A DNA stretch of 18,631 nt from Synechococcus sp. (GTDB lineage Bacteria; Cyanobacteriota; Cyanobacteriia; Thermostichales; PCC-7336): NCBI GenBank assembly GCA_051439425.1, contig JBFRWD010000130.1, forward strand, positions 1 through 18,631. The letters are read 5' to 3'. Shown in pieces: positions 925-18,631 of this stretch. Every line of letters begins with the position of its first letter. Position 1 is the stretch's first letter. The notes below the pieces were generated by a model. The model saw only the letters and a list, made by a program, of their open reading frames with translations, was not told where the DNA came from and did not search any database. A program made the translations under genes and the position numbers.

Positions 925-942
925 TTTAAGAATTGTTACATA
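925..942 (+). promoter_or_regulatory. HLR1-like (RpaB) direct repeat upstream of the sigma factor
   Basis: TTTAAGAA-TT-GTTACATA versus consensus KTTACAWW-N2-KTTACAWW (6/8 and 8/8). Confidence 0.4.
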
Positions 943-1094
943 ATGATTTCGTAGTCAGATTTTATGTATTGCCACGCGAAAGACTTCTGAAACGGCTGAC
1001 AGTCCTACGTATCAAAAGTTTTTCTCATTGTGCGAGCCGCTGTGATGTTACGACCAGCGACTTGCACCATCAATCCTCTCCACGTGCATGTGAA

Positions 1095-2042
1095 ATGAAG
1101 ACTCCTAAATCAGATAGCGTTAGAGATTATCTCCAAGCGATCGGTCGCATCCCATTGCTGACTCACGAAGAAGAGATTCACTACGGCAATCAGGTTCAGC
1201 GACTGGTGACGTTAAACGCGATTGAGGCCGAGCTAAGCGATGAGTTAGAACGCGAGCCAACCTCTACAGAGTGGGCTCAAAAAGCCGGTATCTCAACAGT
1301 TGAGTTGAAGCAGGAGCTCGCCCAGGGCGAGCGAGCCAAGCGCAAAATGGTTGAAGCTAATTTACGTTTGGTCGTATCGGTTGCGAAGAAGTTCTTGAAT
1401 CGTAATGTTGATTTCCTCGACTTAATTCAAGAAGGAAATATTGGATTGCAAAGGGGCGTTGAGAAGTTCGACCCTGGAAAAGGCTATCGCTTTTCCACTT
1501 ATGCTTTCTGGTGGATTCGTCAGGGAATTACCCGTGCGATCTCGCAAAAGAGTCGCACCGTGCGTTTACCCGTGCACATTGGCGAGAAGCTTAATAAGCT
1601 AAAAAAAGTCCAACGCACCCTTGCTCAAAAACTAGGCCGATCTGCATCGGTAGAAGAGCTAGCTAAAGAGACTCAACTGAAAGTCAAAGATGTCCGCACT
1701 TGTCTCCAACATTTTCGTCGTACTGTGTCTCTGGACGTCCCGGTTGGTGATGGAGAAACGAACTTAGGGCAGTTACTTGAAGATACTGGGCCATCGGCTG
1801 AAGACTACGTTATTCAAAGCAGTCTTAAAGCAGACGTCACACAGTTAATGTCGGAACTCGATCCAAAGGAGAAAAACGTTCTGGCTTTAAGATTCGGGAT
1901 GGATGGAGAACAATCCCTGACCTTGCGGAAAGCGGCTTCAGTTTTGAATCTCAGTGCAGAGCGAGTTCGCCAAATTGAACGACAAGCCCTCAAAAAACTA
2001 CGTCGAAATAATGGAGAACTTCAAGAGTATCTCGTCTCATGA
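1095..2042 (+). CDS. sigD: Group 2 RpoD-family sigma-70 factor, SigD/RpoD3-like (315 aa)
   Basis: Region 1.2 [21 protein letters not shown]; region 2 [37 protein letters not shown]; region 4.2 ERVRQIE; no region 1.1. ATG at 1095 is preferred over the TTG at 933 because similarity starts there. The SigD subtype call rests on recalled similarity. Confidence 0.92.
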
Positions 2043-2449
2043 ACGCCGGCAGAGACTTCGAAGCTTGACTTTAGTACTGTGAATCTCTCGTGGCTGACGT
2101 GGCCTTACCGGCCATTGCAGATTCAGCTCGAAAACTTCATTCTAAGACTTATATCTAGCGGCTTGAAGTGAATTCTAGTGATGGGTTAAGTCTTTAGAAA
2201 AACAGTGTTTCCCGATACATTGCCGATGGTGTCTTTCATCTTGACCGATTGGCTTTGTCAATTCGAGAAGTCTAGAGCGAAAAATGACCAAGTTGCAATT
2301 CTGGTTTTGAAATTTTCCCGCTCTGAACTTATAGGAAATTCGGTTGATAGGTATAAATTCATGGTCGGATTTCCCAGTCTGCTACCTATTCAATATTCGG
2401 TTTTCCACCCTGTAGCTCTCTAGAGAGTACGAATAGATTGATAGCGGTA

Positions 2450-2467
2450 GTTACAAAAGTTCACAAG
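2450..2467 (+). promoter_or_regulatory. HLR1-like (RpaB) direct repeat upstream of clpC
   Basis: GTTACAAA-AG-TTCACAAG (8/8 and 6/8 to KTTACAWW). Confidence 0.45.
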
Positions 2468-2620
2468 TGTAAATTGGCTTGTTGGCTGTCTGAAATCGTA
2501 GTCAATGACTAGTTCTATCTCTTAGCTATTTGTTTCTGTTCGCTATGCAATCGCTGCGCTGACCATCGTTCATTTATGGGTCACGCGACATCGATGTTTC
2601 GCCAATTGCAAGGAGCAATC

Positions 2621-5086
2621 ATGTTCGATAAATTCAACAGAGAAGCGATTGCGGCAATCGCCATTGCTCAGCAAGAAGCTCGTCTTCTAAAACAAAGTTC
2701 TGTTGGTCAGGAACTCCTGTTGGTGGGGATCGTTGCTCAGGGAGGCAGCGTTGTCGCAAAAGTCTTGAGAGACTCGGGACTGACTCTACGAGTTGTACAA
2801 GAGGCAGTTGAGGAATCGATTGGACAAGGGTCGGGCTCCTCACCAGCTGATATTCCCTTTGCTGTCAACATCAGACATGTTTTGGAGCAAGCCATAGAGC
2901 AGGCTCGCCAGTGGGAGCACGACTTTATCGGTTCCGAGCACTTGTTATTGGCTTTGCTGACCGATACCGATGGTTCAGCTGCAAGCATTGTTCGTAATTT
3001 AGGTGTCGAGCCAGACAAAATCTGCAAGCAAACGGTCTCGGCATTGGCGGAGAAACGGGCAGTATTAGCAGGAGACAAGCGCAACAATGGAGCCGCATCT
3101 CCCGGGACTCAAACATTAGCGGAGTTTTCCACCGACCTAACTCAACTTGCAGCCGACAACAAAATCGATCCGGTCGTAGGCCGATCTTTAGAAATTGAGC
3201 GGGTGATTCAAGTCCTTGGCCGCCGCAACAAAAATAATCCCGTTCTGCTCGGCCCTCCCGGAGTTGGCAAGACTGCGCTTGCGGAAGGACTGGCACAGCG
3301 CATCGTCAATCAAGATGTACCGCAAGCACTGATTGGAAAGTCAGTTGTCAGCTTGAACGTCGGCTCTCTGCTAGCAGGCACTCAGTTCCGAGGGGAATTT
3401 GAAGGACGTCTAAAGCAAATTATGGGCGAAGTGCAGGAGTCAGGTGACGTCATATTAGTCATAGACGAAATCCACACCTTGGTCGGAGCTGGGGCTCAAG
3501 GTGGCGCTATGGATGCAGCAAACCTTCTCAAACCCGCACTTGCCCGAGGAAAGTTGCAGTGCATTGGAGCCACGACTCTAGACGAGTACCGCCAGTACAT
3601 CGAAAAAGATGCAGCATTAGAACGTCGTTTCCAGCCCGTGATGGTGGACGAACCCAGCGTGGAGGACACCATTGAAATCCTGCGAGGCGTACGGCCGCAA
3701 TACGAACAGCACCATTGCCTTGCCTTTGCGGATGAAGCTCTTCAAGCTGCTGCAACTCTGTCCGCTCGCTACATCAGCGATCGCTACCTGCCGGATAAGG
3801 CAATCGACCTAATTGACGAGGCCGGTTCGCGAGTGCGCTTGCGTCACAGCCAACAGTCTGCCAGTCATGCTTTCAAGCAAGAGCTGCGTCAAGTTGCAGC
3901 GGAAAAGAATGACGCAGTACAAGCTCAAGATTTCGAGCGAGCCAGTCAATTGCGCGATCGCGAAATCGAGCTCGAGAATCAACTTCAACAGACGGGTAAC
4001 GCCGATCGAGACAGTAGTCAGATTGTTGTGGAAGCAGAAGATATTGCTCAGGTGCTTGCGTCCTGGACAGGAATTCCGGTCAATCAGATGACTGAGGCGG
4101 AATCTATCAGATTGTTGAAGCTGGAAGAGACCTTGCACGAACGTCTGATCGGTCAGGAGGACGCAGTAAAAGCGGTTTCCCGTGCCATTCGCCGCGCCCG
4201 AGTTGGCTTGGGAAATCCTAACCGGCCCATCGCCAGCTTTATGTTCTGCGGTCCGACAGGAGTGGGTAAAACCGAACTGACCAAAGCACTCGCTGCGAGC
4301 GTCTTTGGCTCAGAAGAAGCCATGATTCGTCTGGATATGTCCGAGTACATGGAACGGCAGTCGGTCTCCAAACTAATCGGCTCGCCTCCCGGTTATGTCG
4401 GCTACGGCGAAGGGGGGCAGCTGACAGAAGCGGTTCGCCGCCAACCCTACTCTCTGCTGCTCCTGGACGAAATTGAAAAGGCCCATCCCGATGTGTTCAA
4501 CCTCCTGTTGCAGTTATTGGAAGACGGTCGCTTGACCGATTCCCAAGGTCGGGTGGTCAACTTCAAAAATACCTTGATTGTGATGACCTCCAATCTGGGG
4601 GCGCAGGCCATTGAAAAAAGTGGCAGCGGTCTCGGTTTCGATATTTTCAACAGCGATGAAGCGACAGCTCAATACAATCGCACGACTGCCCAAGTCAAAG
4701 AGGCATTGCAACTGGCTTTCCGACCGGAATTCATCAACCGGCTGGATGACATAGTTGTTTTCCGCCAGCTCAACCGGGATGAAGTACGGCACATTGCCGA
4801 TTTGATGCTGCGGGAGGTTTCCAGTCGCCTTGCCGAACGGCAGATTGATATCGAGGTCACCGAGGCTTTTTACACCCGTCTAGTTACTGAAGGATACGAC
4901 CCCACCTACGGTGCTCGTCCTCTCAGGCGGGCGGTCTCTCGATTGTTGGAAGATCCTTTGGCGGAGGCCATTCTGGCAGAGCAAATTCGGTCGGGCGATA
5001 CTGCCATGCTGGATATTGATGAAGATGACAGGGTGCAGGTCCTGCCAAAGCAATCTCATGCCCTCGTCGGCGTTGCCGCTAGTTAA
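2621..5086 (+). CDS. clpC: ATP-dependent Clp protease ATPase subunit, ClpC-type paralogue (821 aa)
   Basis: AGGAG RBS at 2611-2615 before ATG 2621. Double Clp-N repeat; Walker A GPPGVGKT and GPTGVGKT; Walker B LVIDE and LLLDE; UVR-type middle domain ([17 protein letters not shown]); GYVG pore loop; LGF ClpP-docking loop; GARPLRR sensor 2. Confidence 0.95.
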
Positions 5087-5412
5087 TAAAGCCATGGCTT
5101 GGGGTCATGGGGGCTTGATATCCCTCGATCCCGAGCCAGGAACTGGAAAAATGCTCGTCCCCATTACTGTTCAAGATCGCATCGGGACAACCTTTCTAAG
5201 TGGCATCTACAAACCGTAAAGCATCTACTGGAACGCCAAATAGAGGAGGACTACCGCCGTTTGGCGACTGCACAGTCCTCCGTCAAGTGCCCAACAAAGT
5301 TTCACGGCAACCTATATCTCCTTTAGCCGTTCGGCAAGCTAACTGCACGCCGGGCCTGTTATCCAAAGTTACTCTGAAATTCTCCTTCCGATTCTGTACG
5401 GCCCTATCAATC

Positions 5413-6354
5413 ATGACTCACCCAATTGATACCAGTTCTTCCTTCAGCCAAAGTCCCGAACTGGACATGGCATACCTTCAGCAACTCATCCGTCGACAAG
5501 CCGAACATTCCCCGCTGTATGAAAATGTGGCCATTATCGGATGTGGATACGTGGGGTCGTCGTTAGCTGATTTTTGGCAACAGCGGGGACACACTGTCAC
5601 CGGAACAACCACGAGTGCTCTACGCATCCCAGAACTTAAATCGAGGACTTCGCGAGTAGAGGTTCTCGCGGGCAACGACCTTGAAGCCATGCGAAGGGTT
5701 GTTCGGGACCAAGACACTGTTGTGTTGAGTGTTGCCCCAACTGGCATTCGTGCAGCTGATGGCAATGCTTACGCTCGGACCTATCTCGAAACGGCAAAGA
5801 CTTTAGTCAAAGCTGCAAACCAATCATCGAGAGTCAAGCAATTAATTTATCTCAGCAGTTGCTCTGTTTATGGCGATCGCCAGGGAGATTGGGTGGATGA
5901 ATCCACTTCGCTGGTTTCCTACGACGAGCGCAGTCAGGTATTACAGGCCGCAGAAGAAGTGTTACTTCAGGGGACGCAATGCAGAACTTGTATCCTGCGC
6001 CTGGGGGGAATTTACGGGCCGGGTCGGGAACTGGTGAATATGTTCGCAGGCCTTTCGGGGATGACATTGCCTGGAAAAGGCGATCGCTTTAGCAATTGGA
6101 TTCATCTCGACGACATTGTTACTGGGATAGAGTTTGCAAGGGCCAATCAACTTCAAGGAATTTACAATTTGGTTGATGACAGCCAATTAGCCATCCGACA
6201 ACTGATCGAACTAGTTTTTGCACGCTACAGCTTGCCTGGAGTTTTTTGGGATACATCTCAACTGAATGCCCCCCGCCGCGCTAGTTTGCGCGTCAGCAAT
6301 CAGAAGATTAAGGATGCTGGCTTCAGTTTGGCATACCCTAAAGTCAGCCTTTAA
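5413..6354 (+). CDS. NAD(P)-binding atypical SDR / NAD-dependent epimerase-dehydratase family protein
   Basis: Rossmann motif IIGCGYVG, plus LSSCSVYGD, LRLGGIYGPGR, NWIHLDD and SNQKIK; no YxxxK. ATG 5413 chosen as start; the GTG extension from 5200 shows no recognisable homology. Confidence 0.88.
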   Translation: MTHPIDTSSSFSQSPELDMAYLQQLIRRQAEHSPLYENVAIIGCGYVGSSLADFWQQRGHTVTGTTTSALRIPELKSRTSRVEVLAGNDLEAMRRVVRDQDTVVLSVAPTGIRAADGNAYARTYLETAKTLVKAANQSSRVKQLIYLSSCSVYGDRQGDWVDESTSLVSYDERSQVLQAAEEVLLQGTQCRTCILRLGGIYGPGRELVNMFAGLSGMTLPGKGDRFSNWIHLDDIVTGIEFARANQLQGIYNLVDDSQLAIRQLIELVFARYSLPGVFWDTSQLNAPRRASLRVSNQKIKDAGFSLAYPKVSL

Positions 6355-6919
6355 GCATCTTCAACAGTCAGAACTATTGATGACTTAAGTGAAGGGAAGA
6401 TTATCTTTCTTCATACCTGAACTGAAATCTACTTTTGGTAAGGTTGGCGGATGCCAACCACAAACCTTGAGACTGTGCTGAGACAAGGTTGCCTAGTGGT
6501 GTTTGTTTTGGTCGTATTGGGTAAGCTGGCTTTGCCAAACCAGAAATATTAATCTGAAAAGAAGCGTATTTTAGCAATTGGCTTAATTGCTTTGTGAAAG
6601 CACGAGCTTTAAACCCTGTAAATATACTGAGAAATCAAGCCAAACGCCTGTCCCAGTAGCTTTTGCTCAAATTTATGTTAGCGGAATGAAGAACTTTCGG
6701 ATATCCATATAGTAGTATCTAGGGCAATATATTTGTCACAAAATCACACAAGAAAGAACCGACATACTGGGCCCTAGTTGGCTTGCAACTACAGTCAGAC
6801 TTTCAATGCTATTTTCATCAGAAAATAATGCAATAACCATAACAGTTTCGCTTGAATATTATTGGCGTAGAGACTAATATGAAGATATATGAATTACTCG
6901 CATTTGCAGGAGAACTCAC

Positions 6920-7063
6920 ATGGATTCTCAAGATAATCGCTACGGTTTCACTGGTTTCGCAGAAGCTTGGAACGGTCGTCTGGCCATGCTGGGCTTTGTC
7001 ATTGGTGTTGCAACCGAGCTCTTAACTGGTCAAAGCATCTTGTCTCAGATTGGTCTGATGTAA
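6920..7063 (+). CDS. hli: High-light-inducible protein (HLIP/SCP, one-helix CAB family), 47 aa, HliC-like
   Basis: MDSQDNRYGFTGFAEAWNGRLAMLGFVIGVATELLTGQSILSQIGLM*: chlorophyll-binding ExxNGRLAM motif and ELLTG; AGGAG RBS at 6908-6912. Shorter than any ORF in the supplied track. Confidence 0.96.
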   Translation: MDSQDNRYGFTGFAEAWNGRLAMLGFVIGVATELLTGQSILSQIGLM

Positions 7064-7105
7064 GAGCATCTACCCAACTCCAACCTTTGAAACTATTGCT
7101 ATATT

Positions 7106-7133
7106 GCCTTCGTTGTATGCGGAGGCTTTTTTT
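7106..7133 (+). terminator. Rho-independent terminator of hli
   Basis: GCCTTCG-ttgtatg-CGGAGGC stem (one G-U pair) followed by T7. Confidence 0.75.
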
Positions 7134-8228
7134 AGCACTATCCCTCCAAGTGAAGAATAGACAGATAGAACGAGCGGAGTAAAAGGGGAACTCTAAAGAT
7201 GAAGCTTAAATATCAAGATTTGAAGGGAAAAATCGCTACGCTGTAAGCTGTACAATCAGTGTCATTGCATCAACTAAGTCTTGATTTTTGTTTCACCCTG
7301 ACGTTAGTTCGTGAAAACATCAAGAGGTATGTCGAGAAAGGTTTACACACTTTGAAAAGAAAGCACCATCAGTTCCGATCTGCTCTCTCTATTGAGCAGA
7401 TCGTTTAATGCTCTGTCCGCAAGCAGGAGATGCCAAACATTTGGTGTTGAAAATTTTTTTTGAAGATGCGACAAGAGAGAAGCATGCGGTCTTTATATGA
7501 GCAGTTCGACGGTTATAAACGCTTAAGATCGAAGAAGCTAGTAAGGTTATAAGGCCATTTTTCCAAGAAAGAAATGGACCGTTGGAGATCGACCGCAACG
7601 CGTAATCAACGGGCAATTTGTAAGGAATTTCCAGTGGGTGAGCTGGTTCCATTGTTAAGCTTGGAGCAAATTTAGCGCTCACTAGGCTGCACGCCCACTA
7701 ACAGATGGGAACTCGAGGATATGCCAGTTGTTCCTCTCTACAGAGGTAGAAATGATTTCTCGATATATACGTTGAGCATGATGTTTACCACTGTCACTAT
7801 CACGGGCGACCTCTGCTTAAGTAGCCCGATCGAATTAAACGCAAGATAGAAATCTGACAGCCCTTACAAGGCCTCAGGCCCTTGCAACATTCATTAGGAC
7901 GACCTACTTAGAAGCATTTGTGGTCACTAAACCTCAGCGTCCGCTGTGACCCAGACTTTGACTAACTGTCCGATTTGGAGGCCTGAGTGGATTTGAGAGC
8001 TCATTCAAATTATTGTGGCAAAGCCTATCTAATTGCCACCTTACTCACCTGTCTCTTCACTGATGAAAATCAAAATTGTGTTTAAGTAGATGGCAATTTG
8101 GCGAAATCTCGGGGAATGAAAGCTATTCAGAGTTAGGGGTACTTTCAGCAGGGCTACAGGGTGCTATCTCAAACCACGGCACCGTAGATTAGTTAAATAT
8201 TACGATCTAGACCTTCGAGGGATGCGGT

Positions 8229-8273
8229 AAAAAAGCCCAACTCACAGATGAAGCGACAATCTGTGGGCTGGAC
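8229..8273 (-). terminator. Rho-independent terminator of the DoxX gene
   Basis: Minus strand GTCCAGCCCACAGAT-loop-ATCTGTGAGTTGGGC then T6, 8 nt after the stop codon. Confidence 0.75.
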
Positions 8274-8281
8274 CTCCATTA

Positions 8282-8821
8282 CTACTTCGATAGAGCGCCA
8301 GCTTGTTCTGAGCTTTTAGAAGCAAAGGCTGTTTCCAGTCTCATGATTTGTTTTGCTCTTGTCGATAATGCACTTGCATCCAGTTTAGAGAGTATCAATG
8401 CATCGAAGGAAAACAGGCCAGCACCATTAATTACGAAAAACAGGAAACTGCATGCATAGACTGCAGATAACTCTAGGTAAGGAATATTGAAGCCAGATAC
8501 CAGGATGTGATGATACATTGCAACACACATCGTCCCAAACAGGCCAAGGGCGGCAGGACGTGTCAAGAGCCCAATTGCGACTAATGGTGCCCCAATCAAC
8601 TCCGTGAAAGCTGCAACATAACTGAAAAATAGGGGGAACGGTAAGCCAATCACTTCGACGTAAGCCGTCGAAAATCCTTGTATATCGGACAGCTTATCTA
8701 TGCCGTTGTGAACCATCATGATGCCAAGGCAAGCTCTTAGAAGAGCCCAACTGCACTGAGACCAGAACCCAGGACTGACATTGGATTTGAAGATACTTCT
8801 CAAGGATGCGGGAGTGTTCAT
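8282..8821 (-). CDS. DoxX family membrane protein (179 aa)
   Basis: LLRACLGIMMVHNGIDKL, ELIGAPLVAIGLLTRPAA and GAGLFSFD motifs with about four hydrophobic segments. ATG at 8821 is preferred over TTG at 8842. Confidence 0.9.
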   Translation of the reverse strand: MNTPASLRSIFKSNVSPGFWSQCSWALLRACLGIMMVHNGIDKLSDIQGFSTAYVEVIGLPFPLFFSYVAAFTELIGAPLVAIGLLTRPAALGLFGTMCVAMYHHILVSGFNIPYLELSAVYACSFLFFVINGAGLFSFDALILSKLDASALSTRAKQIMRLETAFASKSSEQAGALSK

Positions 8822-8863
8822 TGCGAAATTACCGAGATGCAAGTTAGTTGATTGAGCATTCCT

Positions 8864-8892
8864 ATGATAACGTCTACGTTAAGTTTTATAAA
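8864..8892 (-). promoter_or_regulatory. Putative DoxX promoter: HLR1-like repeat plus -10 box
   Basis: Minus strand TTTATAAA-AC-TTAACGTA (7/8 and 6/8), 5 nt, then TATCAT (TAnnnT). Confidence 0.45.
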
Positions 8893-9156
8893 GGCAGTGC
8901 AGCTGCTTTTCATGCTTTGAATGATTTAACTAATAGCACCGGATGAATATTTGGACTTTCCTAAGCCATTATTTTTCAAGGACAGAAACTCAGTTAAAAG
9001 ATTCTCTCTATGTGTTTTGATCGTGAGTTCATGATACAGAATCAGTAAGGTTAGCTTGATAAAATGCATTAGAAAAAATTTAAGAATAATATTTTGAAAT
9101 AAGTTATTATTCGTGTCTTCAGTATTGTTTGGAAAATTACTTCATCTTCCGTCTTT

Positions 9157-10815
9157 ATGAGTTGTACAGTCGTCTGGTTCCGGCGAGATCTGAGAATTTT
9201 CGATCATGCTCCCCTATTTCGCGCTACTCAGCGGGGAGCTGTGATTCCAGTCTTTGTATTAGATCGTTCACTGCTATTTCATCCCGAAACTGCAGTGGTC
9301 CGTGTAGCATTCATGCTGGATTGTTTGCGATCGCTTCATCGAGACCTTAGCGATCTCGGCGGTCGATTAATTGTCCGCTATGGTGATCCTGCGGTTGTTT
9401 TACCTAACCTAGTCAGAGCAACCAATGCCGATGGAATTTATTCCTACATCGATTTCGAACGGATATACGGGCGGGTAAGAGATGCCAAACTCAATCGAGC
9501 CCTAGCGAATCAGGATCTAAAGATCCGGTGGTTTGAACCTCCCGGTACAACTCCCGAACTGGTTTCATACCCCACTTATCGAGATCTCTGGTACTCCCAA
9601 ATGCAGGAGCCCCTCATCCCCGCGCCATCAGCCGTTCAGGTACCATCAGCCGTTTGTAGTAATCCCATTCCCACACTTACCGAGCTGGGGATCGTTCACG
9701 ACGGCAAATCTATCCCTGCCGGTGGGAGCAAACCTGCACGGAAACTACTAGAAGAATTTTTGGACGAGAAGTGCGATCGCTATTACTGGCAATTGTCCTA
9801 TCCAGGAGCTGAAGCCACTTCCGGCCTCAGTCCCTATATTAAATTCGGGACGATCTCTGCGCGGGAGTGCTATCAGACCGCGCAGCAAACCCTGAATCAG
9901 CGTACAAATCCAAAAATTCAGCGCAGTCGCAAACAATTTATCTCTCGGTTGCGCTGGGGAAGTGGATTTGCTCAACGATTCCGATATCTGCCTCAACTTG
10001 AGGTGCGATCGCTGTACAACATTTTCGACTCAGAAGAGTGGCAATTTAGCGAGAGCCTATATCGGGCATGGCAGGAGGGGCAAACGGGGTTTCCCATCAT
10101 TGACGCGGCTGCTCGGTGCCTAAGTGCGACAGGGGGCTGGAAGCAAATGAATTTTCGCGTCCGAGCGATCTATGCCAGTTTTCTGACTAACCTCATGGGT
10201 ATGGACTGGCGCTACGGTGCCTTGCACTTCATGCGGCACCTCATCGATGGCGACTGCCCGATCGACCATTACCAGTGGGCAATGCAAGCGGGGGTGACCC
10301 ACTGTATCAACAAAACTTGGACCCGGATTTACAATCCCCAGCAGGTGGCCGTCGATCGCTGCGATCCAAAAGGTACTTTCATTCACCGGTGGGTGCCCGA
10401 AGTGGCCCACTTGCCTCCCGAACAATTGGGGCTTCCTCCGAAGCTACGGAATTATCCGACCCCGATTTTGGATTACAAACACGCTCGCCAACAACGTGTC
10501 CAGCAACTGGAATGCTTGCGCCAAAACCTTCTAAACCAAAAGAACGTCTTGCCCTTTCTTTCCTCATTTCCTGAATCGTTGAAACCATTTGGGGCAGAGC
10601 TCCACACCTGCGACGTTAAATGGTCAGAAGCTACTGAGGTAGAGTTGTTTCCATCCGGTTTGAATGTAGACGAGTTAGGACTCAATGAGGCTAAGCTGCT
10701 TCGCACTTGGTTTGTCGCACATGTCAACATCACGCCTCGCAAAAACAAATCAAGGGCTATCTCTAAAAATTCTTCTCAAGAAACAACAGATTCGCGACAA
10801 CTGAAGTTGTTCTAG
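9157..10815 (+). CDS. Cryptochrome/DNA photolyase family FAD-binding protein with about 100-aa C-terminal extension (552 aa)
   Basis: VVWFRRDLR..DH, TSGLSPYIKFGTISAR, AWQEGQTGFPIIDAA, DWRYG, LIDGD, RIYNP, DPKG.FI.RWVPE and YP.PILD motifs. Confidence 0.92.
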   Translation: MSCTVVWFRRDLRIFDHAPLFRATQRGAVIPVFVLDRSLLFHPETAVVRVAFMLDCLRSLHRDLSDLGGRLIVRYGDPAVVLPNLVRATNADGIYSYIDFERIYGRVRDAKLNRALANQDLKIRWFEPPGTTPELVSYPTYRDLWYSQMQEPLIPAPSAVQVPSAVCSNPIPTLTELGIVHDGKSIPAGGSKPARKLLEEFLDEKCDRYYWQLSYPGAEATSGLSPYIKFGTISARECYQTAQQTLNQRTNPKIQRSRKQFISRLRWGSGFAQRFRYLPQLEVRSLYNIFDSEEWQFSESLYRAWQEGQTGFPIIDAAARCLSATGGWKQMNFRVRAIYASFLTNLMGMDWRYGALHFMRHLIDGDCPIDHYQWAMQAGVTHCINKTWTRIYNPQQVAVDRCDPKGTFIHRWVPEVAHLPPEQLGLPPKLRNYPTPILDYKHARQQRVQQLECLRQNLLNQKNVLPFLSSFPESLKPFGAELHTCDVKWSEATEVELFPSGLNVDELGLNEAKLLRTWFVAHVNITPRKNKSRAISKNSSQETTDSRQLKLF

Positions 10816-10911
10816 GCAACATAGCTTAGAAAGTAACTGATTGAGATTTTGCGACATACCCAGCAAAACTTGCCAAGAAATAACCTCTCCATAAGTAAGA
10901 CTGTCAGCACA

Positions 10912-11343
10912 TTAGGAATAGCGTCCGATAATCTCCGCAAAGCCGGGTACTGCGTCCTCAACATCTCCCTTCAGAGACTTGCGAACCTGTTTGTATGCCG
11001 CTACAACAATCTTGTTTTTCGAATTGGAGACTATTCCATCCGTCATAGTCAAGAGAGCATCTGCTGCTTCAGTTTTGCAGCTTGTGAGGAATTCTACCGG
11101 CGAACCTTGTTCTACACCGGCATCCCACAGAGGCTGAAGAGCATCCAATGCTTGCGGAAGTAGCCTTTGCAGTGCGCGAGTGACATACGTTGGGCCAATG
11201 CCTTTTAAGGCTCGATAAGCCGTCTTGACCGTTATGCCATAAATACCGCTCTTCGCTGCAACCTGTTCGTCAAGAAGCGTTGCACAATCAGCCGCCATAC
11301 TCGCCTTGGTCTCTTCATCCTGAATCGTATCGCTTAGCCTCAT
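10912..11343 (-). CDS. Conserved hypothetical protein, DUF6918-like (143 aa)
   Basis: AGGAGG RBS upstream (around 11354-11359); helical protein with the DC..L.DEQVA.KSG..G...K.AY...K pattern recalled for this family. Confidence 0.75.
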   Translation of the reverse strand: MRLSDTIQDEETKASMAADCATLLDEQVAAKSGIYGITVKTAYRALKGIGPTYVTRALQRLLPQALDALQPLWDAGVEQGSPVEFLTSCKTEAADALLTMTDGIVSNSKNKIVVAAYKQVRKSLKGDVEDAVPGFAEIIGRYS

Positions 11344-11977
11344 ATCTCTGGACCTCCTGCGAGCTACAGACAGCTTGCCCCAGGAGGTGTCGCTATCTAC
11401 CTATCTTGAATAGATCATGATGTGTCATTAATCAAGCTTGATTTAAACCAGGAGGGGCATGTCATTTGCATGCATCGGGCACGGTTCAGCTCAACACTAC
11501 ATTGCGACCATTGCTGTTAACGCGAGAGCAAGTGGTAGGTGCCGAACAAGCAGATTGGTTCGGCATGATATTTTCTACTCATCAATCCAGTCACGCTCTA
11601 TTTTGATCGATCGAATAGAACGATCTTAGGCTGCAACTCATTTCCCTCTACGTATATTTTCATTATATTTTTTGCTGTCGATTAAAGTCAGAAATAGGGT
11701 CTGCTTCAGCCCGCCAGACCGTTAATGCAGCTGCAGCGATCGAACCCCATATGCATGCTGTTCTCAAGCTTTGAAAATAGACAAATTATGCAAAGGAGTT
11801 TACAAAAATGATTGGGTTGCTAGGAACATCAATCCTGAAAGAAAACGATTACGCAGCACGATTACGCTGACGGACTCCTACATTGACTCATTCGAGTATG
11901 TACTTATTCGAAATGAAAAATCTAGGTTACCAAATCACTCGATTCAACAGGTTGGTGAGGGCTATCGAACTTACAGG

Positions 11978-12358
11978 TTAGTTCACTATCTGTTTACGCC
12001 TGGGCAAGGGATAGTAGCTTAGTAGTGGTTTGATCGTCCGATCCCAATTGTTTAGGTTTCGGTATATCGCAATATTCTGCTTGACCAGACGAATGTGTTC
12101 CTTGATTGTCTCTTGAGTAAATCCTGCTGCTCGAATAAACACACTGAACTGGTCATTTTCTTCAATAATGAGGGGGACACCGGCTATTTGTGAATAGAAC
12201 GAAAAGTAATTCTTAGCTAGCTTGCGAACCATTTTGAGGTCATCTATGTTTGATAGGATCTCGTACCAGTCTGCATCTAGATATAGTATTTTCTTGATCG
12301 AGTTGGCATCTTCCGGACACAATAGCTGCCAATCTGAAGAGGAGGCTAGGATATACAT
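11978..12358 (-). CDS. Hypothetical protein (126 aa)
   Basis: ATG-initiated ORF in an AT-rich stretch with protein-like composition; no recognisable motif. Confidence 0.45.
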   Translation of the reverse strand: MYILASSSDWQLLCPEDANSIKKILYLDADWYEILSNIDDLKMVRKLAKNYFSFYSQIAGVPLIIEENDQFSVFIRAAGFTQETIKEHIRLVKQNIAIYRNLNNWDRTIKPLLSYYPLPRRKQIVN

Positions 12359-12863
12359 GTCAATGCAAGGTGCTAGTCTTTAAGTACTAACATTATTCCC
12401 CGAGGTTCATCATCAATTATCATGCCTAGTGTCTTGACTACAGTTTAATCCTTATCTTCATAAAAAAGTTACTTTCTTGTTGGCTATTATGTGTATCCAG
12501 CATCCAGAAGATATCTGTAAACGATGAGTAGTATCCAGGTTGCAATGTTCCCGCTTTGGAGATTTTAGATGAGTTTGCTGATGAGCGACTGTCTCATATC
12601 ACACTGCGTGGGCCAGGGAAAAAACCGATATATCTGTGACAAAGTATCGTTCACGAGTATGGCTATTTCTGCAGTTTGATTTAAATTCGACTCACAATTT
12701 TTATAGCTCTCAGGGCTTCACAGTACTGTCGTGTTCCGATCAACGATTGCTGTTAGCATTCAGTCTTAGCAAGCATTTACGTGAATATTACTTCTAAGAA
12801 TAAAGCCAACAATCTCACTGTAGGTAAAAACGCTGGTATTCCTTTTTTAATATCTAATGTAGA

Positions 12864-13400
12864 TTACAGCCTCCAAAGATAGATGGGATAAGTATTGATG
12901 GCATCGGAAGCTTGGCTAGTTGCGTCCGGTTGCCAATCTCCCATATGAAATGAATGACTAAGAATGCGAGTGCCTGGTGCTAGTTGCGAGCGTAGTTTTT
13001 CTTTCAGCTTGAGATTTGAATCGGGCAGCAGGTAAAGCGTGACCACAGTGGCAAATGAGATGTCAGCAGTTAGTAAGTCCTGCTGTTTGAATGAAACCAA
13101 TTGCTCTAAGCCCATGGATTTTGAGCGATCGCGAGCAACACTAATGCAATCGGGATCGATATCGATGCCAACTCCCTTTGCTCCATACCGCTCGGCGGCT
13201 GTTAATACAATACGTCCATCACCACAACCCAGGTCGTACACCACATCATTTGATGTCACATTGGCCAATTTCAACATGGCCTCTATCACAACGGGCATCG
13301 TGCGCACGTAGGGGGCCAAATTGTTTGTAGATGGTTTTGAAGAGGGTTGAAAGCCTTTGGGGGGCACAGGGGGTCTCCAAGCTGGGGTGGCAGGCGGCAA
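12864..13400 (-). CDS. Class I SAM-dependent methyltransferase
   Basis: APYV.T...VIEAMLKLA, motif I VYDLGCGDGR, GVGIDID, ATVVTLYL and PGTRILSHSF. Start uncertain (TTG at 13400, Pro-rich leader). Confidence 0.9.
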   Translation of the reverse strand: MPPATPAWRPPVPPKGFQPSSKPSTNNLAPYVRTMPVVIEAMLKLANVTSNDVVYDLGCGDGRIVLTAAERYGAKGVGIDIDPDCISVARDRSKSMGLEQLVSFKQQDLLTADISFATVVTLYLLPDSNLKLKEKLRSQLAPGTRILSHSFHMGDWQPDATSQASDAINTYPIYLWRL

Positions 13401-13401
13401 T

Positions 13402-13545
13402 CTAAGGAAAACAATCGTCTAGAACGGTACGGTATCGGGGAGAGACGCGATCGCACAACCAGACGCCATTATCGCTGCGATAAAACAATTGCCCATCTCG
13501 ATCCATAGCAGCTGCGTCAACTTCGAGGATAACGGGTTTTATCAC
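13402..13545 (-). pseudogene. kptA: C-terminal remnant of RNA 2'-phosphotransferase (KptA/Tpt1)
   Basis: [36 protein letters not shown] matches the KptA C-terminal signature. The upstream catalytic Arg/His motifs are absent. Confidence 0.75.
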
Positions 13546-13691
13546 GTTAGCCTTTCTAGGTAGTCTGAGCTGGAAGCGAGTTTGACAAAGTCGAGAAAAC
13601 CTATTGGCAAAAGTAGGCAACGAGGTGAAAAATCCCCCCAAGGAAGTCGTGTTATGTTAACAATTATGAACAGCCGTTTCTGAACGTATTC

Positions 13692-14168
13692 ATGAGTATT
13701 TACGACTACACCGTAACCACCATTGATGGCGAATCCAAATCGATGGGCGAGTTTCGCGATCGCGCTCTGCTAATCGTCAACGTTGCTAGCAAGTGCGGCT
13801 TCACCCCTCAGTACAAAGGACTAGAGTCGCTGTACCGCAAGTATAAAGACCAAGGCTTTGAGATTCTGGGTTTCCCTTGCAATCAGTTTGGTTCTCAAGA
13901 GCCTGGGACTGAAACGGACATTAAAGAGTTTTGCTCTACCACTTACGATGTCACCTTCCCCATGTTCTCGAAGGTGGATGTGAATGGCGGCAAAGCCGAT
14001 CCTCTGTATCAATACCTCAAGTCCGAGCAGAAAGGGTTACTGGGCACTGAAGCCATCAAGTGGAATTTCACCAAGTTTTTGGTTGATAAGTCTGGCAAGG
14101 TTGTGAAGCGCTATGGTTCGAATGACAGCCCTGAAAAGTTGGACAAGGAGGTAGCAAACGTTCTCTAA
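13692..14168 (+). CDS. gpx: Glutathione peroxidase family protein (Cys type, probably thioredoxin-dependent)
   Basis: NVASKCGFTPQY, GFPCNQFGSQEP, resolving Cys in EFC, and IKWNFTKFLV. Confidence 0.97.
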   Translation: MSIYDYTVTTIDGESKSMGEFRDRALLIVNVASKCGFTPQYKGLESLYRKYKDQGFEILGFPCNQFGSQEPGTETDIKEFCSTTYDVTFPMFSKVDVNGGKADPLYQYLKSEQKGLLGTEAIKWNFTKFLVDKSGKVVKRYGSNDSPEKLDKEVANVL

Positions 14169-14489
14169 GTCCATCAAGCCATAGCTGTTTGGGTGACTTC
14201 GTCAAGATGTTATCGATCGGCGGTCGTCCAAGACGAGCTTCGTGACATTAAGCCGATCTCAAGACAGTAGAGTCAGAAACCAGCGATTTCCTCTCTGCTG
14301 TTGCGCAGCTGCGGATATAAAGGCGATCGAGCTCCAGGTTTGGAAGCACGATCGCCGTTTAATGGCTCCAACATGACCGTAGGAATGGACTTGTCAGAGT
14401 TTGCCATGACTGGCTCATTCGCCCACCAGGGTGCGCGAGTCTTCGCTATGGGTGCCTAGTTCTATGCGAGCCAGTGCTAACCCGTACAT

Positions 14490-14529
14490 AAAAAAACTGT
14501 ACGATGCCACCACAGTGGCGATCGCACAG
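14490..14529 (-). terminator. Rho-independent terminator of cyAbrB
   Basis: Minus strand CTGTGCGATCGCCAC-tgtg-GTGGCATCGTACAG followed by T7. Confidence 0.75.
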
Positions 14530-14553
14530 ATCGAAAACAACTTTAGATTTTGC

Positions 14554-14907
14554 TCAGTCAACTCGCGTCAGTGCAATTTGCTTTTTGCCTAACTTAATTT
14601 CAAATTCATCACCTGGTTCCAATCCCATTTCATTGGTGTAAGCAGCACCAATCAACAGGTTGCCGTTCTTGTGAACCGAGACTCGGTAGGTGGCGGACCG
14701 GCCCCTTCCACCTCCTTTCGATTCCACATCAAAGTTCATTCCTTCGGCTTCGAGCAGAGCGTTATAGAACGCCATCAGGCTAATTCGTTCCTGACCGTTC
14801 TTGGTGCTGGTCACGTACCCGCAGGCTCTAGCGATATCTTTCTTGTTAGCGCCCTTCATTTGGGACACTTTATCTTGCAGTTTCTTCCCGGTTAATGCTT
14901 CAGCCAT
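14554..14907 (-). CDS. abrB: Cyanobacterial AbrB-like transcriptional regulator (cyAbrB)
   Basis: LTG..L..KV, ARACGY, FYNALLEA.G and YRVSVHKNGNLLIGAAYT..MGLEPGDEFEIKLG.K.I.L signature. Confidence 0.95.
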   Translation of the reverse strand: MAEALTGKKLQDKVSQMKGANKKDIARACGYVTSTKNGQERISLMAFYNALLEAEGMNFDVESKGGGRGRSATYRVSVHKNGNLLIGAAYTNEMGLEPGDEFEIKLGKKQIALTRVD

Positions 14908-15012
14908 GTTTCAACAATACAACTGTGACTATTGATAACAGTATCTCCAATATTCATGGCTGTTGGCAAGTCGTAATACCAATTTCTATCTATAGATAAT
15001 TATCAGCGATTC

Positions 15013-16437
15013 CTAGAAGCATTTACCAGCAGGGTTGCTCGTATTTGAAATCACTTTCATCATCTCGTTGGCTGCCATTGTGCGAGCAGTTGATTTACTC
15101 TGGCCCAGTCCAAAAGCAGAATGCTCTTGCCAAACGAGTTGGCACTGCCATTCAGTACCTTCACCGCTATAGCGATAGGTTGCTTCACCAAATCCCAATT
15201 GCCCCATTGAATTGATAACGCTAATGCTATTCAACATGGGCTGATTTTCTAACACCGCCCCCAGCACCCGGTCTTTCACCTCAGCCTCAAATTTTCCATT
15301 CATCACCACAGCGGCATGACGGGGGGTGAATTTATCTTCGGCCATCCAGCAATGCAATTGCTCTAGCAATGGGACGCTAGCGTCTCCTGACTCTGCAGCT
15401 TGTTCCAACAACCCTGAAAACTGGTTCGAGGTCAGATTAGTGAGTGCGATTGGTGTCTGCAACGTCTTCTCGCGGCGGGCGATCGTTTTCTCCCGCTGCA
15501 TCGCTTCGTAGGCCACCACGCGATCCGCAATCCGCTCGCACAATCCCTTCAAGATAAGGGGATTCCAGACCGATTTCCCTCTGTCCATGGCAGCCACCAA
15601 CTGCTGCTGATTGATTAAGTCTTCCACCCGTCTGAGGGGGCTACTGGTACGGGCATAGCCCGACAGTTTTAGCGCCCAGTGAGGGCCAACCTTGGGTCGG
15701 TGTTCGGCTCTGGGCAAACAATGGGAAATTAATGGTGCCAACACCTGCGGGTCATCTCCCATCTTCTGAACCAACTCTTTGATGTCCTCCACCTTGAGCA
15801 CGTCCTGCACTCGATACATGCCGGGCATCTTGGCTTTGGAGAGTGTTTTAGCCGCCAGTGCGTTGTAAGCAATCGCGGTGGAGGCAATTAGTTGATGGCT
15901 GCCGGAGACCACCTGTCCGATATCGTTGCGGAATTCGCCTACAACGGCCTTACCCCATATGCCCTGCCGCCCGCGATCGAGCCACATTGCCGCCTTGGAT
16001 AGCATCTGTAATTGGTCGGCAAATTGGCTCGTTTCAGTACCGGCCAAAATCCGGTCAGCTTGCTCGTAGCTGAATCGAGCTTGCGAAGCCAATCGGGCTC
16101 GGTGAAACGAATAGTCGCAGATGGTTCCATCCGGTTGCAGCAGAATTTGCAAGGCGATCGCCGGTCGTTCTTTCAGGGGTAGCAGGGAATGCGCTTCGGT
16201 CAATTCGGCTGACAGCATCGGTTGGGTGCAGCGACTGCCTCGATAGCGAGATTCCAACCATACCAATGCGTGCTGCATGGGGTCGGAGAAAGGGGCCACA
16301 CTATTGGAAACGGCCGCAATTGAGATCCACAGTCGCAACTGCTCGCCTTCATCCACCACCCACACCGCATCATCGAGGTCTTTCGAACTCTCTCCATCAA
16401 TAGTGATTCCTAGCAGATCGATCAATTCGCACCTCAA
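15013..16437 (-). CDS. RNB-domain (RNase II/R family) exoribonuclease with C-terminal dsRBD-like domain (474 aa)
   Basis: TIDGESSKDLDDA (four catalytic Asp), SHQLI...AIAYN, YRVQ, HWAL...Y...SSPLRR..D..NQ. TTG start with AAGGA RBS and an in-frame TGA just upstream. Confidence 0.85.
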   Translation of the reverse strand: MRCELIDLLGITIDGESSKDLDDAVWVVDEGEQLRLWISIAAVSNSVAPFSDPMQHALVWLESRYRGSRCTQPMLSAELTEAHSLLPLKERPAIALQILLQPDGTICDYSFHRARLASQARFSYEQADRILAGTETSQFADQLQMLSKAAMWLDRGRQGIWGKAVVGEFRNDIGQVVSGSHQLIASTAIAYNALAAKTLSKAKMPGMYRVQDVLKVEDIKELVQKMGDDPQVLAPLISHCLPRAEHRPKVGPHWALKLSGYARTSSPLRRVEDLINQQQLVAAMDRGKSVWNPLILKGLCERIADRVVAYEAMQREKTIARREKTLQTPIALTNLTSNQFSGLLEQAAESGDASVPLLEQLHCWMAEDKFTPRHAAVVMNGKFEAEVKDRVLGAVLENQPMLNSISVINSMGQLGFGEATYRYSGEGTEWQCQLVWQEHSAFGLGQSKSTARTMAANEMMKVISNTSNPAGKCF

Positions 16438-16925
16438 ATAGGGTTTTTCCTTTCAGCTTGGACCAAGCTGTCCGAACGCAGTCAGATCAGGGGGAAGCGT
16501 AGCTAACGCAGTGGTATCGCTACTGCTAGAACAACACCCGCTACACCTCACATGAGACGATACGATGCCTTATCTCCAATTATTTGGGATTGCTATAGGA
16601 TTGTTAACTTTGTGCCTGAACAAAAAAATAGTGCTGAGTTTTGCTAAATCCAATCAACTTGACGATATCAACAGGGCTGCCACTCAAACTATTTGTAAGG
16701 AAAGTCCTCTTGAGTTATTTTGAAGCTATAAAATTAAAGCTGTATTAGCGGTGTTGAAAGCCATATTAATCTAGGCAATACGTTCGAGCCATAGACGGCT
16801 CATCTTAACTCAACTAGTATATTGCCCCTTTTTTGTAGTGGTTCGCATGGCTGATTTTTAGAGAAGAAAACGGTATCGCGTTCAATCTCACCCTCAATTC
16901 TGCTTGTTTCGAGGAAGTACCGACC

Positions 16926-17270
16926 ATGACTAGCAAAGATGAATCAAAAGCTGGCTTGGCAACCTACGATCGCGGAGGAGCCTTGGGGTTGCGCCCTATT
17001 GCACCGGCCCGATTGCATATTGTGTCAACGTTTATGGGCAATCGTCCCGTCGTGGACACTGGCCTGAAAGTTGCATCTACTTACGGACACGGCCGCCCGA
17101 TCGAAGCGGGTCCGATAAAAGTAGCAGAAACATTTGGCAACAATCGTCCCGTTATGGCCAGCACCCACAAGGTTGTGGGCACATACATGGGCAATCGACC
17201 GATTATGTCCAGCGGCCTCAATATTGCGGGTACCTACCTTCCCGGTGGGCTATTTCACGGGGAAGGTTAG
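16926..17270 (+). CDS. Hypothetical 17-aa tandem-repeat protein (114 aa)
   Basis: GAGGA RBS at 16911-16915; five in-register 17-aa repeats with an RP[IV] core. Confidence 0.85.
   Translation: MTSKDESKAGLATYDRGGALGLRPIAPARLHIVSTFMGNRPVVDTGLKVASTYGHGRPIEAGPIKVAETFGNNRPVMASTHKVVGTYMGNRPIMSSGLNIAGTYLPGGLFHGEG
16986..17240 (+). repeat. Five degenerate 51-bp (17-codon) coding tandem repeats
   Basis: GLRPIAPARLHIVSTFM / GNRPVVDTGLKVASTYG / HGRPIEAGPIKVAETFG / NNRPVMASTHKVVGTYM / GNRPIMSSGLNIAGTYL. Confidence 0.85.
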
Positions 17271-17324
17271 CGGGATTCTCCCTCTCGCCACAGTTATCCT
17301 GGCAGTTTTGCAAATTCTTTTGAG

Positions 17325-18148
17325 GGGACTGTCAAATTAAGGCGAGATCACCCAGCTAGAACACTATTTCTCTCAGATTAAGTCTGGCGTATTGATTTAG
17401 GCAGCGATATTCACATTGGTCACTTCCTGCCAGCTCTTTAACCGCTGGCTCATCGTTTCTCGATATTCAGTTGCTGTGAGTTTGTGCTGACGGGGATGGA
17501 AATGCCCTCGTATCGGTTCGAATGCAGAGAGAAACCGTTGGGCCTGACCGGGAGATTTGAAGCGACCCATCCGTTTCTCTCTCAACCTTGTCGGACGGTG
17601 GGAATTCTAGGCTCGGTTGTTGAGGCCCTTGTGCTGCCTGCGATCTACCCCCTTTAATATCTTTTTCATAGCAGCACCGTAGTTTCTCAGTTTGTCTGTC
17701 ACGACAACCCTGGGGGGGCAGCCTGTGGTTTGAGCAGTTTACGAAAGAATTTGTTGGCTACCCTCTGATTCCGACGAGTCTGTATCAAGATGTCTAGAAC
17801 TTGTCCATGCCGATCGGCGGCTCGCCACAGATAGTATTTCTTTCCGTAAATTTTCACCTCGACTTCGTCCAAGTGCCACTTGTCAGCTGGCTTAGGGTGG
17901 CTACGAGGTAACTGGTTGGCGTAGACCTGGGCAAACTTGCGGCGCCAGTAGCGGATCGCTTCGTAAGTCACCTCGATCCCGCGATAGAGCACATCTCGAT
18001 ATCGCGATAGCTCAGAGGGAACGTGTAATACAGCCAAACGCAAAAAGAGACGATCTCGGAGGGGAAGCGATGACGCTTGTAACTTATGCTCATTCCCTAA
18101 GCCTTACATAGACTGGGGGCTCCGCTGCTGAGTTTATATGACTGTGCC
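17325..18148 (-). mobile_element. IS6-family insertion sequence, degenerate (about 824 bp)
   Basis: Imperfect terminal inverted repeats GGGACTGTCAAATTAA (17325-17340) and GGCACAGTCATATAAA (reverse complement of 18133-18148), 12/16 identical, enclosing an IS6 transposase. No target duplication visible. Confidence 0.85.
17397..18093 (-). pseudogene. IS6-family DDE transposase pseudogene
   Basis: MSISYKRHRFPSEIV...LSYRDIE / LYRGIEVTYEAIRYW...WHLDE...YLWRA.D..G.VLD / PRVVVTDKL..Y.AA...NNRA*NSHRPTR.RE.RM.RFKS. Frameshifts near 17995 and 17715, and a TAG at 17607-17609. Confidence 0.92.
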
Positions 18149-18631
18149 CTATAGTATGCAACGCCGAGGTCGCAACCTGTTTCGGAGCATCTTCCTACAG
18201 ATCCCCCTCATTCCACCTGAACGTCCTGCACGTCCCGGTAGCCCGGACAATATCGCTAATTGCGCCGCACTTACATAGGTTCTATGGAGGACAGTGGAGT
18301 CGCCTGTGGGGTATCCGATCGCAAAGGAACGCTAACCTGAGCAAGGACGCTAAGTATTGGGCTATCGGTTCGGCTACTTTTCCCCACGTTAGCAACGCAA
18401 CTCGCCAGTCTCCTCGATCAATCGCCACGTTCAAAGTTATGTTTCAAATAGTAGTTTATAGACCCAAATAGAGTACATTGAATTTGAAGCCAAAAGCTTC
18501 AGATGCGTTCAACGAAGGAGTTTCTACTCTGGTTAACTTATCAAGTAAAGACCATCAAAAACAGCAACCCAAGCTAAGATTGTCGAACCTTCCTCTTATT
18601 TCTTAAGAGAGTAACGAAAGTGAGCATTGTT

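Follow-up and report, generated by a model that had tools for sequence, protein, structure and literature searches.

A cryptochrome-like photolyase homologue with a predicted sliding clamp-binding tail in Synechococcus sp. and related cyanobacteria

The window analysed here is a stretch of 18,631 nucleotides from Synechococcus sp. (contig JBFRWD010000130.1 of assembly GCA_051439425.1, positions 1 to 18,631 of the forward strand), and the subject of this report is a gene at 9157–10815 on its forward strand. The open reading frame (ORF) encodes 552 amino acids (aa) plus a stop codon, and its product is a photolyase/cryptochrome-family protein with a C-terminal extension that ends in a predicted binding motif for the sliding clamp, DnaN. 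The original prediction made from this DNA had the gene running from 9157 to 10500. The start is correct, but this span covers only the region of photolyase homology and omits 105 codons, the true end being 10815. The gene comprises the following features, with model confidence given as predicted local distance difference test values (pLDDT).

9157–10815, forward strand: whole coding sequence (ORF list; Pfam families PF00875 and PF03441 above their cut-offs; AlphaFold2 model; Foldseek)
9166–9528, forward strand: N-terminal alpha/beta (antenna) domain, residues 4–124 (PF00875, E 1.3e-27)
9937–10509, forward strand: helical domain of the type that binds flavin adenine dinucleotide (FAD), residues 261–451, with the remodelled lesion pocket R264, G268, F333, A337 and M376 (PF03441, E 5e-48; mapping to E. 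coli Phr)
10039–10278, forward strand: codon span of the Trp triad, W295 (10039–10041), W351 (10207–10209) and W374 (10276–10278) (alignment to E. coli W306, W359 and W382)
10264–10266, forward strand: codon of Asp370 at the E. coli N378 position (the neighbour of flavin N5), between I369 (site 377) and H371 (gap-free alignment)
10510–10716, forward strand: folded part of the C-terminal extension, residues 452–520, including the conserved LRTWFVAHV helix (pLDDT 84–94)
10717–10797, forward strand: disordered basic linker, residues 521–547 (pLDDT 43–57)
10798–10812, forward strand: terminal pentapeptide QLKLF, residues 548–552, a predicted beta-clamp-binding motif (motif count in orthologues; complex model with DnaN)

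The protein belongs to the cryptochrome/photolyase superfamily, as both Pfam domains are present (PF00875 at 97.2 bits, cut-off 26.6; PF03441 at 163.6 bits, cut-off 27) and the AlphaFold2 model (90-row alignment; mean pLDDT 92.3, predicted template modelling score 0.91) matches 1owl. This structure, the 8-hydroxy-5-deazaflavin (8-HDF) photolyase of A. nidulans, is the top Foldseek match (template modelling score 0.88, normalised by target length) and also the best solved relative by sequence (E 5.2e-61, 209.9 bits), followed in order by E. coli photolyase, class III, DASH, and plant CRY1. Curated family models fall far below their cut-offs. The best of the NCBIfam models, TIGR03556 for 8-HDF photolyases, scores 251.4 bits against a cut-off of 884.6, while the class I photolyase model PRK10674 scores 178.4 against 506, the plant cryptochrome model TIGR02766 scores 152.1 against 603.85, and the DASH model TIGR02765 scores 148 against 317.05; the protein is thus placed in none of these families by score. 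The same genome encodes a 474-aa canonical class I paralogue in which every canonical residue is kept, and a separate 503-aa DASH-type paralogue. Therefore, ordinary photorepair is covered by other genes.

Residues were mapped onto E. coli K-12 Phr (L005:2008-3423), numbered as in the literature (index minus one), and onto the class I and DASH paralogues of the same genome. In these alignments, E274 corresponds to R264, N341 to F333, M345 to A337, W384 to M376, and N378 to D370 (codon 10264–10266), while the Trp triad is kept, with W306, W359, and W382 found as W295, W351, and W374. The original prediction had given the same residue numbers and the same equivalences, and all of them are borne out by E. 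coli Phr and the paralogue. W277 is also kept (W267), the FAD/lesion-pocket Arg R278 is replaced by G268, and further changes turn R226 into S214, A377 into I369, and G381 into Q373. A two-residue insert (K329, Q330) precedes NFRVRA. R334, R390, and R401 occupy the positions of R342, R397, and K407, and the FAD-contact positions Y222, T234, S235, S238, W338, R344, D372, and D374 are represented by Y210, T221, S222, S225, W328, R336, D364, and D366. Because the alignment with E. coli Phr has no gap from the DGD anchor (D364/D366) to W374, Asp370 is assigned to the N378 position by homology, and the HMMER alignment to 1owl has the same register. The catalytic His pair of eukaryote-type (6-4) photolyases falls where E. 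coli has N341 and M345; these positions hold F333 and A337 here, and the protein is not of that type. Five pocket residues of class I enzymes that repair cyclobutane pyrimidine dimers (CPDs), E274, N341, M345, W384, and R226, together with N378 of the flavin site, are all replaced, and the canonical paralogue of the genome keeps all six. Judged from these six positions and from the scores of the curated models, the protein lacks the residues of CPD repair and is not a canonical CPD photolyase, in agreement with the original prediction.

The meaning of sites 377 and 378 can be taken from published work, which is cited throughout from the parts of each paper that were covered. According to Wen et al. 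(2022, PMC9356274), DASH proteins share with CPD and (6-4) photolyases a conserved Asn at site 378, which is Asp in plant cryptochromes and Cys in insect cryptochromes. The alignment of D370 to E. coli N378 thus upholds the earlier claim of a plant cryptochrome-type Asp at the flavin N5 site. The same authors report that N378D by itself fails to make E. coli photolyase a cryptochrome, and that Ile, Leu, or Val at site 377 gives a lower photoreduction yield, faster reoxidation of fully reduced flavin (FADH-), and impaired repair, the hydrophobic mutants of this site destabilising fully reduced flavin in three photolyases (PMC9356274).

A word-indexed protein search listed 120 orthologues of 539–573 aa and 65–100% identity, entered in databases as deoxyribodipyrimidine photo-lyase; wherever a source is named, it is a thin filamentous or related cyanobacterium. 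R264, G268, F333, A337, D370, H371, W351, W374, and M376 are invariant in all 120, and W295 is kept in 119; Ile369 at site 377 is invariant in the clade as well. Among the FAD-contact positions, Y210, T221, S225, W328, R336, D364, and D366 are kept in every member, and the position of S222 (E. coli S235) has Thr in 90 members and Ser in the other 30. Since these residue states are invariant in 120 orthologues, the altered pocket is not the result of chance decay. The gene itself has an uneven distribution. Among 280 candidate stretches from species-representative genomes, a relative is encoded in 274, of which the best 80 are from Leptolyngbya-like cyanobacteria, and in an even sample of the phylum (401 genomes) orthologues with at least 50% identity occur in only 7, the window genome included, so that the gene is patchy across the phylum. 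All 120 clade members likewise share four cysteines (C321, C367, C383, and C402) and two histidines (H371 and H382) that class I enzymes lack, a residue pattern that suggests a possible metal or redox site. An iron-sulfur or metal site was nevertheless judged unlikely, as deeper members of the lineage carry A, R, or G at C383 and some carry F at C402. The protein does not fit FeS-BCP/CryPro, a group marked by a PF04244-type N-terminal domain and a four-Cys iron-sulfur site: PF04244 was unmatched in the Pfam search, and the four clade cysteines are incompletely kept in deeper members.

Residues 452–552 have no counterpart in class I enzymes or in class I paralogues. In the AlphaFold2 model, residues 452–520 are folded (pLDDT 84–94 per 10-residue block) and this part is conserved across the clade, while residues 521–552 are disordered (pLDDT 43–57). 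The linker varies in sequence over the 120 members, with a median length of 22 aa (16–45), a median net charge of +5 (+2 to +9), and 35% Lys plus Arg. In contrast, the end of the protein is fixed: a Q[LMFIV]x[LFIM][LFWMIQR] motif lies within the last 15 residues of all 120 orthologues, and 108 of them fit the stricter Q[LM]xL[LF]. The commonest terminal form is QLSLL (55), followed by QLNLL (26), QLKLF (6), QMNLF (5), QLSLF (5), and similar sequences. The bacterial clamp-binding consensus has been given as QL[S/D]LF or QxxLF (PMC12309361), and QLKLF at the extreme C-terminus of the window protein, following a flexible linker, is a peptide of this type.

The motif is rare in the genome. Among 3207 ORFs of at least 150 aa, only three carry Q[LM]xL[LF] in the last 8 residues, compared with 1.4 expected from internal 8-mers, and these encode the window protein, DNA polymerase IV (Pol IV; DinB, IMS family), and a DUF72 protein. 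The Pol IV of the genome (355 aa; L146:633-1700, equal to G000:C170:4632-5699, minus strand) ends in QLSLL, which is also the commonest tail of the clade. The DUF72 protein (189 aa; L147:580-1149, equal to G000:C12:6079-6648, minus strand) ends in EEQLDLF and, going by this ending, may be another unrecognised clamp client.

A complex was modelled from the DnaN of the genome (19-row alignment) and tail residues 521–552 (40-row alignment). The model scored 0.73 in all three runs, as opposed to 0.00 for the best of three controls, and the score mark applied is reached by 116 of 157 solved complexes and by 2 of 215 mismatched pairs. Between runs, at least 74% of the contacts agree, and the partner pLDDT is 48 or higher. 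Residues 544–552 contact DnaN at 173, 175–178, 269–274, 347–349, 373–375, and 389–396, which include the invariant TDGHRL loop and the C-terminal strand. The DnaN of this genome can be aligned to E. coli beta, for which structures with bound peptides are available, and on the basis of this alignment we take the contacted residues to be the canonical clamp cleft. As modelled, the tail occupies this hydrophobic cleft. The window protein thereby resembles Pol IV, in that both carry a terminal QLxL[LF] after a flexible segment and, in the model, the tail of the window protein goes into the same cleft of DnaN, whereas the cargo in the present case is a photolyase-fold flavoprotein. No photolyase or cryptochrome was found described as a clamp partner in the literature covered.

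An exhaustive search of representatives showed that identity falls from 53% (P0121) to 40–43% and then to about 35%. When 177 sequences were scored at the key columns, they split cleanly into two sets. The first, class I-like set has Glu or Gln, Asn, and Met at sites 274, 341, and 345, with N378 and W384. The second, large set has Arg at 274, Phe at 341, and Ala at 345 (hereafter the R-F-A lineage), with either Asp or Asn at the N5 site and W382 kept, or His at that site and W382 lost. Over all 177 sequences, site 378 is Asn in 83, His in 62, Asp in 31, and Leu in 1. The biggest R-F-A branch (P0134–P0268) is the one with His at N5 (the 62 sequences just counted) and loss of W382, the proximal Trp of the triad. 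Another cyanobacterial group, with proteins of about 515 aa (L043-L051, from the phylum search), shows LRW[HR]DSF, GWMNFRMRA, and DGDLAI[DN][HN]WQWQM; one of its members, L043, ends in QQLSLDFGDLHS.

A phylogeny was built from 69 rows (IQ-TREE quick search, LG+C20, with the DASH paralogue of the genome as outgroup), with plant sequences and VcCry2 of Vibrio cholerae outside the sample; support values from such a quick search call for caution on long branches. All 47 R-F-A rows form one clade nested among the class I rows (Shimodaira–Hasegawa approximate likelihood ratio test, SH-aLRT, 100), and the clade of the window protein (8 rows, SH-aLRT 100) lies near its base. The N5 site of the 47 rows is Asp in 18, Asn in 10, His in 18, and Leu in 1, and the basal branches have Asp. 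A recent duplication of a cyanobacterial class I photolyase was considered as the origin of the clade and rejected: forcing the clade together with cyanobacterial class I rows, a grouping chosen after inspection of the tree, gave p 0.0077 in the approximately unbiased (AU) test and a log-likelihood difference of 87.9. In the family census, none of the 72 class I-like sequences has a clamp-type C-terminus, whereas 17 of 18 clade rows do (the single miss, P0048, ends in QFTLF), as do 6 of 24 other Asp/Asn-type and 15 of 61 His-type sequences, with QLSLPL, QLNLF, and QMALF among the His-type forms. The clamp motif thus recurs across the whole R-F-A lineage and is absent from the true photolyases sampled.

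Several known systems can be set beside this clade. The class I 8-HDF photolyase of A. nidulans/S. elongatus (PhrA; 1owl, 1tez) has the same two domains, FAD contacts, and Trp triad. The window protein differs from it by the six replaced lesion and flavin-site residues, with Asp in place of N378, by the two-residue insert, and by the C-terminal extension of 100 residues; in addition, the curated cut-off lies far above its score and the AU test rejects a sister relation to cyanobacterial class I enzymes. Arabidopsis CRY1 and CRY2 share the N5 Asp (plant state as in PMC9356274), the Trp triad, and a C-terminal extension. However, the extension of the window protein is mostly folded and ends in a clamp motif, whereas the tail of plant cryptochromes is long, disordered, and concerned with signalling. 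The plant cryptochrome structure 1u3c is also a weaker match to the window protein than 1owl (124.3 versus 209.9 bits). Since plant cryptochromes match less well than photolyases, the Asp at N5 probably arose independently of theirs.

The closest description in print is that of NewCRY. According to Emmerich et al. (2020, PMC7736829), NewCRY proteins make up 8% of the superfamily, occur only in bacteria and haloarchaea, were formerly annotated as CPD photolyases, and are without E274 and N341, a loss from which signalling was regarded as the sole feasible function. Vicedomini et al. (2022, PMC9016551) describe the same group as NCRY, with terminal extensions and a position hidden inside class I in trees. 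Both papers name VcCry2 of Vibrio cholerae as the sole member studied, and as cited there it bound FAD but showed no repair. Like NewCRY/NCRY, the window clade consists of bacterial two-domain proteins annotated as CPD photolyases that have lost E274 and N341 (here R264 and F333), co-occur with a real photolyase, carry terminal extensions, and nest in class I in ordinary trees. By published description, the R-F-A lineage thus matches NewCRY/NCRY. The window clade is distinguished within it by a full Trp triad and Asp at N5, as opposed to the His at N5 and lost W382 of the largest branch. The covered parts of PMC7736829 and PMC9016551 mention neither the N5 residue nor a clamp motif, and the His-type N5 environment also goes unmentioned there. 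As such, the original prediction was right to suspect a poorly characterised clade, but the wider lineage, and with it the argument that such a protein is cryptochrome-like rather than a CPD photolyase, was already in print as NewCRY/NCRY together with the case for signalling. What is new with respect to the literature covered is the Asp at N5 in the clade and, above all, the clamp-binding tail.

Taken together, the window protein is probably a cryptochrome-like flavoprotein without CPD activity that is tethered to the sliding clamp, and we hold this broad statement with moderate confidence. The best explanation as a whole, that such a clamp-tethered protein has a light-gated action on DNA, is offered tentatively, as it falls slightly short of probable. 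A light-gated regulator at the clamp, as one form of the broad statement, is a step less likely still, although a real possibility. We consider it rather doubtful that blue light directly gates access to the clamp through a plant-type Asp/Trp-triad photocycle, which would make the protein a cryptochrome riding on the replisome. The original prediction of a signalling receptor is in part retained here, in that the flavin site is cryptochrome-like. The clamp motif, which lay outside the span considered at that time, speaks for a function on DNA, at the sliding clamp, rather than for a free-standing receptor.

As a mechanism, we infer that the window protein binds FAD with an oxidised resting state. 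Blue light would reduce the oxidised FAD to the neutral radical through W374, W351, and W295, with Asp370 beside N5 as the likely proton donor to the flavin, and Ile369 would disfavour a stable FADH-. The C-terminal extension would consist of a folded cap, a basic flexible linker, and the terminal QLxL[LF] peptide inserted into the DnaN cleft, so that the protein could remain attached to DNA-loaded clamps as it works, whether at replication forks, in gaps, or at repair sites. A change in the pocket and in the folded C-terminal segment may then alter the action of the clamp-bound protein on DNA. Alternatively, this change may determine whether the protein occupies the clamp cleft, for which Pol IV and other partners would compete.

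A number of points weigh against this interpretation. The sister cyanobacterial group of about 515 aa alternates Asp and Asn at N5 among close relatives; Asp alone is consequently a weak marker of function, and the plant-type photocycle may be non-essential to the lineage. Most known clamp partners are enzymes that act on DNA, which favours a repair function, and the strictly conserved pocket could be a substrate site. With respect to the complex model, many clamp–peptide complexes have been solved, so that passing the score mark means likeness to a clamp-binding motif and not binding itself; the score may reflect only likeness to those complexes, and partner pLDDT is below 50 in at least one run. 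Around the gene, neither conserved neighbours nor an upstream LexA-type box were found that would link it to replication or the SOS response. Finally, the identity of the R-F-A lineage with NewCRY rests on published description, as VcCry2 lies outside the tree, and Table S1 of PMC7736829 labels members of the window clade 'classI'. These are row 4331 (Leptolyngbya frigida ULC18, 544 aa, the length of the Stenomitos frigidus ULC18 orthologue, L125) and row 4335 (Leptolyngbya sp. O-77 / Cyanobium PCC 7001, 554 aa), while the VcCry2 row sits within a block of 889 nodes labelled 'classA'.

The alternative that survives best is a photolyase recruited by the clamp to a lesion other than the CPD of duplex DNA, with the invariant remodelled pocket as its substrate site, which we regard as unlikely but worth serious attention. 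Candidate lesions are another type of base adduct or a photoproduct situated in the single-stranded gaps behind replication forks, and the enzyme would be brought there by its clamp motif. The photolyase fold, the retained W267, the Arg residues at the positions of R342, R397, and K407, and a pocket unchanged in 120 of 120 orthologues all fit such an enzyme, as does the clamp motif, which is typical of DNA enzymes and whose only annotated partner in the genome scan is a polymerase. There is also a precedent, in that DASH 'cryptochromes' were later shown to be single-strand photolyases (PMC7736829). However, Asp at N5 together with Ile at site 377 would disfavour the FADH- that all known photolyases need (PMC9356274), the positions of the (6-4) His pair are Phe and Ala, and VcCry2 of the related family bound FAD without repair (cited in PMC7736829 and PMC9016551).

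Next comes a free blue-light receptor that signals to other proteins, with a terminal pentapeptide unrelated to the clamp that may serve, for example, as a degradation or partner-binding tag. The cryptochrome-like flavin site and the loss of the CPD residues agree with this idea, C-terminal extensions are typical of signalling cryptochromes (PMC9016551), and signalling is the only NewCRY function that Emmerich et al. find feasible (PMC7736829). Against it, all 120 members keep a clamp-consensus tail while the preceding linker varies, the Pol IV of the same genome carries the same kind of terminal pentapeptide, the tail is seated in the canonical DnaN pocket by a complex model whose controls score 0.00, and no partner gene was found conserved beside it in 80 related loci. 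A receptor that only signals is disfavoured because of the invariant clamp-type tail, and we think it quite improbable.

A role that is independent of light, in which the photolyase scaffold would serve flavin redox chemistry or nucleotide binding in the dark, whether or not the clamp is bound, is less probable again. In its favour, classical photoreduction may be missing from part of the R-F-A lineage, as the His-type branch has lost the proximal triad Trp, and the sister cyanobacterial group switches freely between Asp and Asn. Within the clade, however, the whole Trp triad and Asp370 are invariant (119–120 of 120), which is hard to explain without photochemistry. An ordinary CPD photolyase, suggested by the database name and by class I photolyases being the best structural and sequence matches, is scarcely credible given the replacement of E274, N341, M345, W384, R226, and N378, the shortfall against the 8-HDF and class I models, and a canonical paralogue with all these residues in the same genome.

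The clamp-tethered flavoprotein that we prefer is encoded among ordinary housekeeping genes, which are listed here.

2–610, reverse strand: ferrochelatase fragment
933–2042, forward strand: sigma-70 factor
2576–5086, forward strand: ClpB/ClpC-type chaperone with UVR motif
8282–8842, reverse strand: DoxX
10912–11343, reverse strand: DUF6918
13692–14168, forward strand: glutathione peroxidase
14554–14907, reverse strand: AbrB-like regulator
15013–16437, reverse strand: RNB exoribonuclease

A conserved operon was rejected, as each of 11 window neighbours (the ferrochelatase fragment left aside) stands beside the gene in at most 1 of 80 related loci. In these loci, the neighbour cluster with the most members is a PAS-type sensor, present in 16 of 80 without a fixed side or strand, and a DnaQ-like 3'-5' exonuclease lies downstream on the opposite strand in 6 of 80 (e.g., L127:8360-9139), too few to be called conserved. 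SOS control was rejected as well. With a cyanobacterial LexA-type pattern, the window holds 2 one-mismatch matches against 3.95 expected, and no such box was found in the upstream region 8843–9156. Rfam and tRNA scans found no RNA genes in the window. Nearly 2 kb of the window (6355–8281) holds a single 97-aa ORF without a family match, and no Rfam or tRNA match. A 114-aa ORF at 17699–18043 on the reverse strand matches an IS240-type DDE transposase domain at its beginning only (profile positions 2–56 of 139) and is probably a transposase remnant.

NewCRY/NCRY proteins account for about 8% of photolyase/cryptochrome sequences (PMC7736829) and have been without a known function or partner in the literature covered; the conserved tail suggests a concrete partner, DnaN, and a place of action on DNA, and makes the usual assumption of a free signalling receptor less likely. 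Hundreds of database entries under the name deoxyribodipyrimidine photo-lyase are very probably misnamed. The plant cryptochrome Asp is strictly conserved in a bacterial lineage that is nearer by sequence score to class I photolyases than to plant cryptochromes, and the clade is thus a natural system in which to ask about the role of Asp beside flavin N5. About a quarter of the other NewCRY-type members sampled, from other bacteria, have the same kind of tail, and the proposal, if true, would supply a first mechanism for this large orphan family. By reading light on the replication clamp, such a protein would couple blue light to replication, gap filling, or translesion synthesis, and would provide cyanobacteria with a direct route from light to genome maintenance.

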